From the IMG/VR virus record IMGVR_UViG_3300045988_151230: a DNA stretch of 64,000 nt; one strand, written 5' to 3'. Shown here one piece after another: positions 8,291 to 61,528 of this stretch (positions are counted from its first letter, which is position 1; every line of letters begins with the position of its first letter). The notes beneath the pieces were generated by a model. That model saw only the letters and a list, made by a program, of their open reading frames with translations, had not been told where the DNA came from and did not search any database. A program made the translations under genes and the position numbers. The DNA is from a virus. Its lineage: Duplodnaviria > Heunggongvirae > Uroviricota > Caudoviricetes.

Positions 8291-8443
8291 AATTACACCA
8301 TTAAATAATTTGTTTTCTGATTGGTGTAATTATCGCAAACTTGAAAAGGCATAAAAGCTGCATTCATAGGCGTTACAGCAGATTTAAGGCGTAAAAATGG
8401 GGGCTGTCGCCCCCTGTCGACTGGTGATGTATTAGAGTGCGTA

Positions 8444-8998
8444 TTACGTTTTGTGCGGCTGCTTATTCAAGTCATGGCGATGCGTGAGCTCCCGCATCAT
8501 GTCTTCAAGGCGACTCTTTGTGTCGTCGAGCTGGTCGGCCATTGCACCTAAAAGCTGGCGAACGGCCATCGGATCGTCGCTGTTTAGTGATGGCATTTTA
8601 GAACCTGCTTTAGAAGACATAAGGTTGATTGCAGACATCAACATCGTTAGAGAGGATTTAAGCCCGGCAATTTCACGATCTTTGCTGGCAATAATCGTCT
8701 CACTTTTGTTACCGTCATCAGTTTCTTGAGTCTCGCTCACCATATCCAAAGTCGCTTGCAACTTATCAGCTCTCTCTTTTTCAGCAAGGTAATGAACACC
8801 GAAATGGTGTGCCAAAGCTACAATCTGAGTTGGCTCTTCAAAGGTGGAATTAAAATTAAGTATTGTAAACAGTCTCTCAAATATGGAAACGTCTTCTATT
8901 CCTCGAAGAATGGCTAACATTTTGACCAGTTCATTAGCATCCATTTCTTCGAATAAGGCGTTTTGTTCATCAGCTATTGCTTTGCATTTCTCGCACAT
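8444..8998 (-). CDS. hypothetical protein
   Basis: 184-aa ORF with the recurring leader and upstream palindrome. Confidence 0.45.
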   Translation of the reverse strand: MCEKCKAIADEQNALFEEMDANELVKMLAILRGIEDVSIFERLFTILNFNSTFEEPTQIVALAHHFGVHYLAEKERADKLQATLDMVSETQETDDGNKSETIIASKDREIAGLKSSLTMLMSAINLMSSKAGSKMPSLNSDDPMAVRQLLGAMADQLDDTKSRLEDMMRELTHRHDLNKQPHKT

Positions 8999-9014
8999 GT
9001 GTTTTCCTTAATGC

Positions 9015-9034
9015 TTAAACAAGTTGTTTTCTTA
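9015..9034. promoter_or_regulatory. recurring near-palindromic motif TTAAACAAGTTGTTTTCTTA
   Basis: 17-36 bp upstream of the start at 8998; one of at least seven similar copies. Confidence 0.45.
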
Positions 9035-9295
9035 TTGGTTTTATTGTGATGTGGCATAAAAGGGGAGCAAGCTAAACGTAAAGGTGCAAACTCTCTATTT
9101 CGGTCAACGAAACACAAGGGCCAAATGGCCCTTGTCATTAACACTTTGCTTTACGAACTAACGGATAAGCGAAGTAGATCGCCAAACCAATGAGGACGCC
9201 ATCAGAAATGACAGACATCATCTTTCCCGTAAAATCCACCAACACCGCCATCACCAGAAGAGCAATGACGATCACAAGCCGGAATCTCTCAAGCA

Positions 9296-9721
9296 TTAGA
9301 GATAAGCATCCAGTGACAACTGAAGCGCCTGGGCGATCTTTTTCAGTGCCTGCTCTTCTTGTTCACCAATGCCGTCCTGATCGGCAATATCAAGGCACAG
9401 ACACAGAACATCGACCGCCTCTGGAGTACCCGCAATATCAGACAGCTCACGAATAGCCTGTGCATTAGCAGAACGAGGGGACGCTTCGTAACGAGCACGG
9501 ATATTGGCGCTCATTTGGGCAATTTCACCAGCAAACGGAGAAAACGCAGGCAGAGCTGCAATTGTCTTCTCAAGAATGGCAATTTCTTTTGCGTCACATG
9601 TGCCGTCGGCATAGGAGATCATGTACGCGCCCCACACGGTGGCCTCAACCGCATCACGGTTCTCCATTTTTTTGACTTCGATAACTGCTTTACGAGTTTT
9701 CTTTTTGAAGAAACCTAACAT
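9296..9721 (-). CDS. TerB-like (tellurite-resistance TerB domain) protein
   Basis: 141-aa ORF; ADG...DQDGIGEQEEQALKKIAQALQLS resembles TerB helical repeats. Confidence 0.5.
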   Translation of the reverse strand: MLGFFKKKTRKAVIEVKKMENRDAVEATVWGAYMISYADGTCDAKEIAILEKTIAALPAFSPFAGEIAQMSANIRARYEASPRSANAQAIRELSDIAGTPEAVDVLCLCLDIADQDGIGEQEEQALKKIAQALQLSLDAYL

Positions 9722-9742
9722 GTGTTTTCCTTTTGTTATTTG

Positions 9743-9762
9743 TCAAAACAAGTTGTTTTCTA
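9743..9762. promoter_or_regulatory. recurring near-palindromic motif TCAAAACAAGTTGTTTTCTA
   Basis: Upstream of the TerB-like gene start. Confidence 0.45.
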
Positions 9763-59048: not shown

Positions 59049-59328
59049 CTGGTAGGTAGTTACTTACTTATCACAATGAGCGGATGATAGCGACTGGTGG
59101 CAGTTTTTGGAAGTGAAAACGGAAGGGAGTTGTTCTGGTGGTGTCTTTTAAAAGACCTGCTTCCGTATATATTTAATAAGTTACTTATTATTTATATACA
59201 GAAACAGGCTCCTAATGGATACCAAGAACAACATAATTTGACTCCAACCCCAGATGCTATGTCATTGACAGATTTATCAAGGGAGATCATGTTAGAATCA
59301 GTGTTTTAGCCTCGTGGATATTGTCACC

Positions 59329-60387
59329 ATGCGCATGAATAGACTTCCAGGATATGGCCTTCCCGAACTGGCTTTTTGGCCTCAGCCTAAATATGAACGG
59401 AATAAATGGTCGATGTTCTGTCTGAAACTCCGTAATGATGGAACCCTTGCTTGGTATCGGCGATATGTTGATCGTGGTATGCCAAACCACGCTTTTGATG
59501 ACGACTACGATAACTATCCTGAAGCAAGAAAAGCGGCATTAGAGCTGAATAAAAACGTGAGCTTTGACATTGAAAAACTTCCTCTATCTATGTTTCAAAA
59601 GAAGTCATTGCGTTTGAAAGTTGACAAAGCACTCAAAGCCAAATCACGTCTCATGGATGAAGAGCATATAATGCTCAACGAAGCAATTAAGGCACACGCC
59701 AACGATCCGCGAGTGACATTAAATGAGTTAATAATTAACCCAGATTACGAAACTTTGCGTCAACCCCTTTTTGACGTGCTAAGCGAGATGCCTTACTTAC
59801 ATTTTGTTTTTCTTCCCAAATTCCAAGTTTCACTTCAACTCGTTGCTCCTAACACTTGGGAATGTTCATATAACAACAAAGCTAAGACAGCGAAGATCTG
59901 CTACCAAGAACGCATAGCCAGAGGTTTTGGTTTATCAGGTGCTGCACATTGGGGAAAAACAAAAGCGACTATTCGCTCAATGCTTCTGCCGCGTGCTAAC
60001 CGGTTACTGCAACTCGCCAGCGTAAAAAGAATGCTGGATGAAGCTCTCAGGAATGGGCAAAAGGTACTGGTTGTTGGCAACTTTGTTTTCTGGTTTGAGG
60101 ACAAAAATCAGGTAGGTTGGAGTGTTAAAGTTGCTAGCGAAAGCGAAACCACCTCAAGAGGCAATACGCTCTGGAAAGAAGGAACTATCATTTCAAAAAA
60201 TCACGGTCGAATTGTCGTGCTGCCGTATACAAAAGAAAACGGTAAACATGTAAAAGGTTATACCAAGAATGCCCCTAACGACGGCAACGCAATTCCGAGA
60301 CATAAGGATGAGTATGTCGAGTTGCCCTTTGAAATTTTGGATGGTGACTTGATGTTCAGTCTGTTCGGTGAGCTTAACTACGAATAG
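59329..60387 (+). CDS. hypothetical protein, lone plus-strand gene
   Basis: About 350-aa ORF with no competing minus-strand ORF; start taken at the first ATG (track start is GTG at 59314). Confidence 0.45.
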   Translation: MRMNRLPGYGLPELAFWPQPKYERNKWSMFCLKLRNDGTLAWYRRYVDRGMPNHAFDDDYDNYPEARKAALELNKNVSFDIEKLPLSMFQKKSLRLKVDKALKAKSRLMDEEHIMLNEAIKAHANDPRVTLNELIINPDYETLRQPLFDVLSEMPYLHFVFLPKFQVSLQLVAPNTWECSYNNKAKTAKICYQERIARGFGLSGAAHWGKTKATIRSMLLPRANRLLQLASVKRMLDEALRNGQKVLVVGNFVFWFEDKNQVGWSVKVASESETTSRGNTLWKEGTIISKNHGRIVVLPYTKENGKHVKGYTKNAPNDGNAIPRHKDEYVELPFEILDGDLMFSLFGELNYE

Positions 60388-60447
60388 CTTTCATAGAACG
60401 AAATATTTCTAAGGCTGTCCAATGCAGACCAGCCTTAGAGATTTATA

Positions 60448-60807
60448 TCAACCTTTCTTCATTAACTCGCGTTTAATTTCATCGGTACGCATCGTGACAT
60501 CGGCAGCGGTGATCGCCTCATTCAATTTCACGATGTCCTCGATTTCCTGCGGTGACTTCTCTGCCAGATGGAAAATGGCTGCTCGAATCACGTCAGAACG
60601 AGTGAACTTCTCGAAGCGAGGGATGAACTTCATCATCTCCAGCAGTTCGAAGTATTCGTCCTCCAGTGACATTGTGCGGCTTTTAATTTTCTCTTTGCCA
60701 CGAGTCGGGCGTCCCTGTGGTCTGACTGGTTGGCGCAAAGGAGTTGTGTTCTTAGCCGGTGCATCAGGCTCTTTGCGCTTTGCTAGGTCACCCATTTTCA
60801 TGGACAT
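60448..60807 (-). CDS. small basic partition protein (ParB/ParG-like partner of ParA)
   Basis: 119-aa ORF with basic, probably disordered N-terminus, coupled downstream of parA. Confidence 0.5.
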   Translation of the reverse strand: MSMKMGDLAKRKEPDAPAKNTTPLRQPVRPQGRPTRGKEKIKSRTMSLEDEYFELLEMMKFIPRFEKFTRSDVIRAAIFHLAEKSPQEIEDIVKLNEAITAADVTMRTDEIKRELMKKG

Positions 60808-61475
60808 TATTCTTCTTCCTCCAGACTCAACAGATAATCTACAAATTCTTCAAACTCGGCTTCCGCCTTTTTGTCGCGCTCGCTACCGGTCATTTCAAAG
60901 ATAGAACGACCAGACTCTTCCGCATCATCATAGACGTTGCGGTTATATAGATTGACTGGCGCAGACTCGATGCCAAACGTCTCAACAATCTCTTTAGCCG
61001 CCAGAATGCGAGACACTTGTGATGGCAAAGCCGGGCACTGGTTCATGACCGCGCGGACCTTCACTTTATCGTTTACATTGCGAACATTGTCGATAATAGG
61101 ATCGATGTCACGTAAAGATTTCAAATCACGACGCTTAGGACGCAGCGGGATAATGATAACGTCAGCCATCAGCATCGCTTGTCGCTGAATTTCGGAGTCG
61201 AAGCCACCAGCATCTACCACTACAAACTCAGCTCTACCCTGAAGCGATTTTAGGTGCTTAATGATGTCATCCTGAACGTATGCAAAAGGAATCAGCTCAA
61301 GGTCTTCGTTCTGTCGACGGTCTTCACACCAGCTTGTTGTCGTGCGCTGAATATCTATATCAGTGATATAAACCTTCTTCTTCTTTTTGACTTTCAGGCA
61401 AACGGCAATTTGCTGGGCAACGGTGGATTTGCCAGGCCCGCCCTTTGTGCCGCCAACCACAAAGATCTTGGTCAT
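60807..61475 (-). CDS. parA: ParA-family partition ATPase
   Basis: Deviant Walker A GGTKGGPGKST; 222 aa; acidic C-terminus. Confidence 0.8.
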   Translation of the reverse strand: MTKIFVVGGTKGGPGKSTVAQQIAVCLKVKKKKKVYITDIDIQRTTTSWCEDRRQNEDLELIPFAYVQDDIIKHLKSLQGRAEFVVVDAGGFDSEIQRQAMLMADVIIIPLRPKRRDLKSLRDIDPIIDNVRNVNDKVKVRAVMNQCPALPSQVSRILAAKEIVETFGIESAPVNLYNRNVYDDAEESGRSIFEMTGSERDKKAEAEFEEFVDYLLSLEEEE

Positions 61476-61508
61476 TGGAGAGTTCCCTTTGCGTATATAA
61501 TTATCGTC

Positions 61509-61528
61509 TGAAACAACTTGTTTTCTTA
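61509..61528. promoter_or_regulatory. recurring near-palindromic motif TGAAACAACTTGTTTTCTTA
   Basis: 34 bp upstream of the parA start; may also act as a partition-operon operator. Confidence 0.45.

Follow-up and report, generated by a model that had tools for sequence, protein, structure and literature searches.

A palindromic-core motif ahead of dispersed operons in SSU5-type phage-plasmids is a candidate DNA operator

Introduction

What reads a short near-palindrome that recurs ahead of separate operons in a phage genome? The question is raised by the 64,000-nucleotide stretch of DNA analysed here in full (the window), which belongs to a phage-plasmid of the SSU5/pHCM2/pMT1 type and shows 99% identity to Escherichia phage CMS-2020a. 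Cyrano is 97.6% identical to the window, and its annotation is the source of the window gene names. SSU5-type phage-plasmids are common in Enterobacterales: the family accounts for some 750–830 plasmid records in one database and includes pMT1 of Yersinia pestis, the membership of which was confirmed in this analysis. We take S. Typhi pHCM2 and Klebsiella elements bearing resistance genes to be members as well. To our knowledge, next to nothing has been described of how these elements choose between plasmid life and lysis; a literature search found no paper giving the motif sequence and none on SSU5 promoters or operators.

The motif and its copies in the window

The full unit is a directional 20-mer, AGAAAACAAnTTGTTTAAGG, with a palindromic core of 13 bp. 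The window genes at the copies lie on the minus strand, and in gene orientation the motif reads AGAAAACAAnTTGTTTAA; the dyad may also be written AAACAAnTTGTTT. The core AAACAANTTGTTT occurs exactly five times in the window, compared with 0.00 times in 100 shuffles, and the 18-mer TTAAACAAGTTGTTTTCT with up to three mismatches has eight matches against 0.12 expected (shuffle maximum 2), at 5393(-), 8301, 9015, 9744, 19963, 32720, 58273 and 61509. A PWM scan adds a ninth, weak copy near 46393. All nine are intergenic in a window of which 14.8% is non-coding (P ~3e-8). The seven copies listed in a sequence-only reading of the window were therefore all present, as was the extra half-site that it placed at nrdB, and two more, both inverted, came to light. 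The features are as follows.

8301–8318, minus strand: forward copy AGAAAACAAATTATTTAA, 10 nt before the ATG (8290) of the DUF4942 gene 6605–8290
8329–8337, minus strand: TGcGATAAT, a predicted extended -10 box situated 10 nt upstream of the copy at 8301
9015–9032, minus strand: forward copy AGAAAACAACTTGTTTAA, identical to the consensus, 16 nt before the ATG of 8444–8998
9744–9761, minus strand: forward copy AGAAAACAACTTGTTTTG at the TciA/TerB-like gene 9296–9721, 22 nt before its ATG
19963–19980, minus strand: forward copy AGATAACAACTTGTTTAA at nrdB, 29 nt before its ATG (19933)
19988–19995, minus strand: half-site TTGTTTAA, additional to the nrdB copy and upstream of it
32720–32737, minus strand: forward copy AGAAAACAATTTGTTTAA at the DUF7238 gene 32280–32705, 14 nt before its ATG
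58273–58290, minus strand: forward copy AGAAAACAATTTGTTTAA, 17 nt before the ATG (58255) of the DnaB-like helicase gene, abutted by a predicted -10 box
61509–61526, minus strand: forward copy AGAAAACAAGTTGTTTCA at parA, 33 nt before its ATG (61475)
5393–5410, plus strand: inverted (R-type) copy, TTAAATAAATTGTTTTCT in gene orientation, 71 nt before the ATG at 5321
46393–46410, plus strand: inverted copy, degenerate, ahead of the cobT-like gene 44270–46378 (14 nt from its ATG), with the core reading AAATAATTTGTTT in gene orientation

The names given earlier to nrdB, the helicase gene and parA agree with the Cyrano annotation. Individual copies differ in how widely they are kept. That at parA is retained in Cyrano, SSU5 and the Kqq plasmid, and the AGATAAC variant of the nrdB copy is kept in SSU5 and Kqq; the first bases of the nrdB copy apparently belong to a candidate -10 box, TAAGAT. 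The 8301 copy is degenerate in Cyrano and present in SSU5 and Kqq, and the SSU5 ortholog of the cobT-like gene has a forward copy in place of the inverted one.

The dyad symmetry first described held up in part. The dyad is enriched and the core is palindromic; the whole unit is directional rather than a simple symmetric dyad. Its left half is the better kept, the flanks AGA...AAGG are retained in both orientations, and G-to-A changes in the right half occur without compensation in the left. We count this asymmetry against an operator, since none of this would be required of a symmetric site bound by a simple homodimer.

Placement relative to genes and predicted promoters

A search of the whole Cyrano element bears out the association with gene starts: each of the 15 strong matches (at least 18 bits) has one no more than about 70 nt downstream, counted after two start codons had been corrected from PHROG alignments. 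The forward copies always lie on the sense strand, often abutting the Shine–Dalgarno sequence (TTTAAGGAG...ATG), and sit at or just after predicted sigma-70 -10 boxes. The distance from motif to predicted box has two modes, 0–2 nt and 10–11 nt, which together account for 28 of 49 sites; at 17 sites the box is 10–11 nt upstream, 12 of them with TGn, and a GATAAT box at the spacing of the 8301 copy is predicted to recur at 17 sites across genomes. Several window copies have weak -10 candidates alone, which also counts against an operator, as does a strict sigma-70 scan for -35 and -10 elements, in which the three copies between 8250 and 9850 are without a promoter call.

The position relative to the gene, which had been described as fixed, is not: the seven forward copies in the window end 10, 16, 22, 29, 14, 17 and 33 nt before their ATGs. 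This variation argues against the specialised promoter element that had been offered as one function, and no gene for a phage RNA polymerase or sigma factor was seen in the annotations.

The motif recurs in cassettes, alignable as wholes over some 60 bp and preceded by terminator-like hairpins. Each forward copy has the terminator of the preceding unit on one side and the next gene on the other. Examples are the hairpins at 9114–9135, upstream of the 9015 copy, and at 32762–32779, which forms the terminator of the operon upstream of the 32720 copy. The inverted copy at 5393 directly follows a hairpin (5409–5429), and this cassette and hairpin also occur in P1/P7. Copies are densest among small accessory ORFs. 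Some are paired: at three promoters in three genomes a second, inverted copy lies 51 bp upstream over the -35 region, and tandem copies 25 bp apart occur in three contexts. These exact spacings could stem from the common descent of the cassettes rather than from binding geometry.

The seven leaders, compared with shuffled sequences, showed no RNA structure (fold z-scores -0.5 to +1.1) and the motif variants show no covariation; the dyad is therefore not an RNA hairpin. Nor is it a known RNA family, Rfam finding three tRNAs only, or a LexA box, the CTGT-N8-ACAG pattern being absent from it. True LexA-box matches occur elsewhere in the window, at 2012–2030 and 48452–48470.

Conservation and expression

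About 17–20 copies per genome are present in Cyrano, SSU5 and the Klebsiella plasmid NZ_CP084809, the helicase region of which is 63% identical, and they stand at orthologous promoters, including those of parA, the helicase gene, the DUF4942 gene and terS; in relatives, two copies precede the terminase gene. At the helicase promoter the motif is invariant in eight aligned relatives, the 63%-identical plasmid among them, while the flanking bases diverge. The same motif occurs in elements from Escherichia, Salmonella, Klebsiella, Enterobacter, Cronobacter and Yersinia, pMT1 included. It is restricted to the family to a marked degree: 102 of 120 viral matches are SSU5-like, about seven are P1-like copies of one cassette and the remainder are consistent with chance. 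Representative genomes of 185,579 species hold eight matches to the full 20-mer, none of them in Escherichia, Salmonella or Klebsiella records.

RNA-seq of the LF82 (Cyrano) lysogen places motif-headed genes at background: 7 for terS, 21 for the helicase gene, 13 for nrdB and 5.7 for CYRAN_58, with a background of 9.8 (PMC9928086, S1 table). The parA operon has a near-consensus copy, yet is expressed at 50–89 (PMC9928086). We count the silence of the former genes for an operator and the expression of parA against one.

An operator for an element-encoded repressor

A regulator-binding site, the other function originally proposed, is probably the best reading of a dyad that heads independent transcription units, those of nrdB, the helicase and parA included. 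Specifically, we favour, at a little short of even confidence, a DNA operator for an element-encoded repressor, set in a promoter–operator cassette specific to SSU5-type phage-plasmids. The dyad centre would fall at roughly +5 to +15 of the predicted transcription start, following a -10 box that often reads TGnGATAAT, and we propose that a regulator encoded by the element occupies these sites in their DNA form, thereby preventing initiation or promoter escape. Some 20 dispersed operons for replication, nucleotide metabolism, partition, small accessory genes and packaging or structural proteins would be kept off or low in the plasmid-prophage state, and induction would release them jointly.

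Such an arrangement has parallels. In the C1 network of P1 a short sequence stands at many scattered promoters, including that of the replicative helicase gene, and one regulator silences dispersed operons. Both are phage-plasmids with one sequence at dispersed promoters; the C1 operator is an asymmetric 17-mer, ATTGCTCTAATAAATTT, whereas the sequence here is different and has a palindromic core, and no protein is named C1 in the annotations of the SSU5-type records consulted. KorA and KorB of IncP plasmids likewise use palindromes of 12–13 bp at many backbone promoters for replication and partition, and ParB-family proteins are encoded in both cases. There, KorA sites overlap the -10 box, those of KorB being upstream or distant, whereas the SSU5-type site is at or after the predicted start; in lying just after a start, here a predicted one, it resembles lac O1. 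The operators of phage 434, ACAA-N6-TTGT, share the inner ACAA/TTGT but space the halves by 6 bp rather than 1 bp. The PeSL cassettes of T4-type phages combine an early promoter with a stem-loop and flank small accessory genes in plastic regions; they too are repeated promoter-plus-hairpin cassettes, but the cassettes described here carry a conserved dyad and belong to a temperate phage-plasmid.

Candidate regulators and competing explanations

Two window proteins could bind DNA.

46940–47326, plus strand: Xre-type HTH protein (CYRAN_45 of Cyrano, 'putative repressor')
52562–52777, minus strand: 71-residue protein modelled as a MarR-like winged helix (pLDDT 81; top matches in the MarR family, TM ~0.7, E-values 0.04 or worse)

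Pfam and PHROG scans of about 50 window and Cyrano proteins found no further DNA-binding domain, and a PDB sequence search with CYRAN_117 and CYRAN_123 gave nothing useful. The 71-residue protein is conserved in the family and on the strength of its model is an alternative candidate; its gene is at background in the lysogen, as are two ParB-like genes (PMC9928086). A third protein, FljA-like (PF03614, E = 1e-80), is encoded outside the window, in the genome 99% identical to it, and by every SSU5-type element examined; 12 phage and 831 plasmid records contain it. None of the FljA-like, Xre-type and winged-helix genes adjoins a motif copy, a further point against an operator. The motif is unchanged in elements with FljA-like proteins of 53–57% identity; as it is invariant even in the most divergent relatives, there is no covariation between motif and binder to use.

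The FljA-like protein underlies the strongest competitor of a DNA operator. It is the sole family-wide member of a repressor family that we detected and its fold is modelled as RNA-binding, which we count against the operator. The AF2 model (pLDDT 83.5) comprises two tandem domains, each a helix plus five strands, and all of its top PDB matches are Hfq (rmsd 1.2 Å). The gene is expressed in the lysogen (log2 7–8 in four of five conditions; PMC9928086), and FljA-like regulators prevent translation of fliC mRNA (PMC2652032). The motif may accordingly be a 20-nt site in the leader RNA to which a FljA-family protein binds, blocking ribosome loading and destabilizing the mRNAs, in the way FljA acts on fliC mRNA, and so serving as a global post-transcriptional silencer in the lysogen, a reading that we hold to be possible but on balance unlikely. 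The sense-strand placement after a predicted -10 box and often against the Shine–Dalgarno sequence, in a predicted 5' leader as with fliC, is in its favour, and a directional unit would suit a two-domain protein or one that reads a single strand. Single-stranded RNA has no use for a palindromic core, however, and this one forms no stable hairpin; the uncompensated right-half changes, the inverted copies that cover the -35 region ahead of the predicted start and gaps to the ATG of up to 29–33 nt at nrdB and parA all fit poorly. FljA has one target against some 20 putative ones here, the family has no known binding site, and the E. coli fliC leader lacks the motif, resembling it loosely (CAAC..CTTG). 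We regard as rather doubtful the fuller model in which the tandem-Hfq protein, acting on motif RNA, would silence about 20 operons post-transcriptionally and hold the plasmid state, an Sm-fold layer of lysogeny control that would replace a DNA repressor or work next to one. Under this model, the inverted copies followed by hairpins could be sources of short decoy RNAs.

The HTH protein, suggested earlier as a binder, is an improbable reader of the motif. It is the sole Pfam-recognizable HTH in the window, its gene runs opposite to most genes and is expressed at about 96 in the lysogen (PMC9928086), and nearly all plasmid-form relatives encode it, pMT1 included; its absence from the lytic isolate SSU5 is what might be expected of a virulent derivative. 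Against this, its own 250-bp control region is devoid of the motif and instead carries GGTAAGCACTTACC (46895–46908), a different palindrome, from a second, more abundant motif family with sites of the form GGTAAG-NN-CTTACC, together with related half-sites. SSU5 keeps about 19 motif copies without the protein, and in Klebsiella elements with the identical motif the protein is 47–57% identical.

We see equally little prospect for an explanation without any dedicated binder, in which a promoter-plus-leader cassette has spread by duplication and recombination, its unstructured A/U-rich leader translating well, its inverted copies serving as T-rich terminator tails and its sites perhaps as swap points for small genes. 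Leaders less structured than shuffled controls, the ~60-bp alignments, the density among small accessory ORFs, the hairpins that precede inverted copies and the cassette common to P1/P7 all agree with it. It does not account for a palindrome that is invariant across elements of ~63% identity while adjacent leader bases vary freely, for the exact 25 and 51 bp spacings, or for the silence, in the lysogen, of operons with good -10 boxes.

A site read by some conserved host protein is very improbable, as is a promoter served by a phage sigma factor or a polymerase of the T7 kind: the motif is the same in elements of six host genera, but it is essentially absent from representative chromosomes and concentrated in SSU5-like viruses, its distances to the -10 box and ATG vary, the annotations hold no polymerase or sigma gene, and we know of no E. 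coli regulator with a matching site.

Biological implications

The motif makes a single 20-mer a concrete and cheap handle on the choice between plasmid life and lysis, one that marks putatively co-regulated genes for replication, partition, nucleotide supply and packaging. Taken with the second motif class, it offers a map of the transcription units of the element. If the FljA-like tandem-Hfq protein reads the motif, a mobile element would owe its global regulation to a protein hitherto linked only with flagellar phase variation.

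Distribution of the motif

Along a 12.5-kb stretch the window shares 99.0% identity with Escherichia phage CMS-2020a and 97.6% with phage Cyrano (pLF82, a phage-plasmid from E. coli LF82); identity with Salmonella phage SSU5 and relatives from Klebsiella is ~77%. Since almost all window genes are encoded on the minus strand, the motif is given here in gene orientation, the reverse complement of its spelling in the sequence-only reading. The seven copies reported in that reading, AGAAAACAAnTTGTTTAA in gene orientation, exist and end 10–33 nt before the listed ATGs. The exact core AAACAANTTGTTT occurs five times in the window and never in shuffles; the 18-mer with no more than three mismatches occurs eight times against 0.12 expected, and a position-weight scan adds a ninth, weak copy. 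Non-coding sequence makes up 14.8% of the window, and all nine copies fall between genes (P about 3e-8). The names proposed for the genes (nrdB, the helicase, which is DnaB-like, and parA) are correct by the annotation of Cyrano. The fixed position attributed to the motif does not hold, as the gap to the ATG ranges from ~9 to 33 nt or more.

The genomes of Cyrano, SSU5 and the Klebsiella quasipneumoniae plasmid NZ_CP084809, which matches the helicase region of the window at only 63% identity, were assembled. Each carries about 17–20 copies, mostly gene-directed. Enrichment upstream of genes, the whole-element check put forward with the motif, is upheld in Cyrano: each of the 15 strong matches precedes a gene by no more than about 70 nt, two of these placements resting on corrected start codons backed by PHROG alignments. 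For CYRAN_105 (Cyrano 95805) and CYRAN_110 (Cyrano 97903), annotation puts the start codon ahead of the motif or overlapping it, and the PHROG alignments start at residues 8 and 24, so translation probably begins downstream of the motif.

Across genomes the motif is kept at the orthologous promoters of parA, the helicase, DUF4942, the gene after tciB and the small-terminase gene, the last with two copies in tandem, a pair also carried by Y. pestis pMT1. When the helicase promoters of eight elements are aligned, the motif does not vary and the adjoining bases do. The motif likewise stays the same where an element's FljA-like protein has only 53–57% identity. The window (8301–8318), SSU5 and the Klebsiella plasmid have a complete copy at the DUF4942 promoter, whereas the Cyrano copy (82870–82934) has lost its right half (ATTAAACAAATCACTTCTTAA), so single copies can decay between close relatives. 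An exact-pattern scan of viral contigs gave 120 loci, 102 of them SSU5-like. The 20-mer described below has only eight matches in representative genomes of all species, none of the eight in an Escherichia, Salmonella or Klebsiella record. The motif is thus a mark of this element family and not of a host regulon.

Architecture of the motif and its promoters

Read on the gene strand, sites that satisfy the symmetric criterion are of two kinds:

Forward copies, gene strand: flanks aAGA-core-AAGG
Inverted copies, gene strand: CCTT-core-TCTgCCTTtt, the exact reverse complement of the forward form

Because the flanks are kept as exact reverse complements in both classes, the predicted functional unit is a directional 20-mer whose 13-bp core is palindromic. 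Its left half is more conserved than its right half. A −10-like box precedes forward copies; at 17 sites it reads GATAAT, TATTAT or CACAAT and lies 10–11 nt upstream of the motif, 12 sites having TGn ahead of it to give a predicted extended −10 box. Box and motif are contiguous at the promoters of the helicase and the polymerase. A strict −35/−10 scan called no promoter at three window copies and placed terminator-like hairpins just upstream of two of these. Given the boxes and upstream hairpins, each cassette (box, motif copy and any hairpin) appears to head its own transcription unit. This organization resembles the PeSL promoter cassettes known from T4-type phages.

At three promoters in three genomes an inverted copy lies 51 bp upstream of the forward copy, covering the predicted −35 region immediately after the preceding hairpin; tandem forward copies 25 bp apart occur in three contexts. 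On the minus strand at window 5340–5365 another palindrome (AGCACTTGGTAGTGCT) occupies the leader position, with no forward motif copy there, and 5393–5410 is the upstream motif copy of its cassette. This inverted copy with its adjacent hairpin (5393–5429) is also found, as a single copy, in P1/P7-type phage-plasmids, where it adjoins upf93.6 and humD:

P7 (AF503408, locus L140): downstream of upf93.6
Further viral loci with the inverted copy and hairpin: L120, L087 and others

P1 and one SSU5-like genome share a segment of about 290 bp at 90% identity, which indicates an exchange of modules between the two phage-plasmid families. Downstream of the tandem copies that precede the small-terminase gene come a GC-rich hairpin and a T-rich run (AGAGCGC...GCGCTCT gtgtgtttt), a possible site of attenuation or antitermination in the leader of the late operon:

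Tandem copies with GC-rich hairpin, outside the window: Cyrano 50–130; SSU5 49–130; Y. pestis pMT1 (locus L141, about 4000–4071)

An RNA hairpin as the origin of the dyad was rejected: the predicted folding of seven leaders does not exceed that of shuffled sequences (z from −0.5 to +1.1), and the left half never carries a change that would compensate the frequent G-to-A in the right. An Rfam scan of the window returned three tRNAs and nothing else; they cluster at 51104–51347 on the minus strand, and their Cyrano counterparts are annotated Asn, Thr and Ser.

Other repeats

A second, commoner dyad, (g)aTA(A/G)GTAAGTnnTTAC(T/C)TAtc, recurs about 25–30 times in each of the genomes of Cyrano, SSU5 and the distant Klebsiella plasmid, in replication and structural modules alike. 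Often TGTAAGAAT or TGTATAAGAT comes 6–9 nt after it, so that the dyad stands at a −35 or activator-type position; its transcript could also fold into a 7-bp hairpin. A third repeat, TATA(C/T)(G/A)GAAG(C/A)AGG, usually has an AT-rich run ahead of it, forms one inverted pair 40 bp apart near 12.2 kb and has a copy that precedes the tandem motif pair at terS by about 45 nt.

Second dyad, window, 5' ends on the minus strand: 59070, 55636, 54755, 52114, 49070, 44251, 38668, 33878, 31929, 28426, 23723, 17840, 17702, 12868, 10655, 6604
Third repeat, window: 59156–59169 (−), 12167–12180 (−), 12208–12221 (+)
Third repeat, Cyrano and SSU5: left ends, upstream of terS

The LexA-box pattern (CTGT-N8-ACAG) is matched at window 2012–2030 and 48452–48470, upstream of a UmuD-like S24 peptidase gene (1606–1995) and the integrase gene (47321–48424); these putative boxes fit the published ciprofloxacin induction of Cyrano.

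Candidate readers of the motif

Normalized RNA-seq counts from the LF82 lysogen are tabulated for all Cyrano genes, the background being 9.8; genes headed by the motif stay at background level (terS 7, CYRAN_58 5.7, tciA 7, nrdB 13, helicase 21), the exception among motif-headed units being the parA operon at 50–89 (PMC9928086). Promoters that look able to function with no polymerase but that of the host are thus silent in the plasmid state, so that either negative control or fast mRNA loss is needed.

We tentatively favour a DNA operator. The palindromic core, the copies over the predicted −35 region (outside any downstream mRNA), the exact pair spacings and a closer tie to the −10 box than to the ATG all point this way.

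An RNA site for the FljA-like protein that these elements encode is rather unlikely, although leader copies are strictly sense-strand beside the ribosome-binding site, the 20-mer is directional and the protein itself is FljA/Hfq-like. Its gene is outside the window but is present in the genome 99% identical to it; in Cyrano its position is:

Cyrano 100780–101301, minus strand: FljA-family 'transcriptional regulator' gene (CYRAN_114), core to all SSU5-type elements

Pfam places the protein in PF03614, the family of the FljA 'repressor of phase-1 flagellin' (E = 1e-80); 12 phage and 831 plasmid records contain it, and its gene is expressed in the lysogen. Apart from the Xre-type HTH protein, it is the only member of a known regulator family that was detected throughout these elements. 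Its AlphaFold model (pLDDT 83.5) has two tandem helix-plus-five-strand domains, and the top PDB matches are all Hfq (1.2 Å r.m.s.d.). The protein thus models as two tandem Hfq/Sm domains and, by extension, the whole PF03614 family, Salmonella FljA included, probably has a tandem-Sm RNA-binding fold. Yamamoto and Kutsukake reportedly found in 2006 that FljA binds the fliC leader, after which the mRNA disappears. FljA-type regulators block translation of fliC mRNA (PMC2652032). The motif is not present in the E. coli fliC leader.

The Xre-type HTH protein (46940–47326; CYRAN_45), which the sequence-only reading proposed as binder, is an improbable reader. Its gene is expressed in the lysogen and present in nearly all plasmid-form relatives, but its own 250-bp control region has no motif copy, SSU5 lacks the gene yet retains the motif, and the protein is only 47–57% identical in Klebsiella elements whose motif is identical. 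That control region has GGTAAGCACTTACC, a member of the family of the second dyad described above, at window 46895–46908, ~30 nt upstream of the gene, and related half-sites at 46714–46733 and 46832–46850. This membership suggests that the HTH protein reads the second family rather than AAACAAnTTGTTT. Another family-wide protein, of 71 residues (52562–52777), models as a MarR-like winged helix (pLDDT 81; TM about 0.7, weak E-values) and is at background in the lysogen.

A cassette without a dedicated binder is as improbable as the Xre-type HTH reading. A host factor site or special promoter is very improbable, and a host regulon site was rejected, the 20-mer being nearly absent from representative genomes (eight matches) and most of the viral loci being SSU5-like.

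Relation to known systems

The P1 C1 network and the KorA/KorB regulon share the logic of one short site at many scattered promoters, but the motif differs in sequence from their sites and belongs to neither system. Judged by annotation, the annotated relatives have no protein named C1, and the two ParB-like proteins, themselves candidate readers, are silent in the lysogen. A literature search found no paper with the motif sequence or an account of SSU5 promoters. The motif would gain in interest if the tandem-Hfq protein were its true reader.
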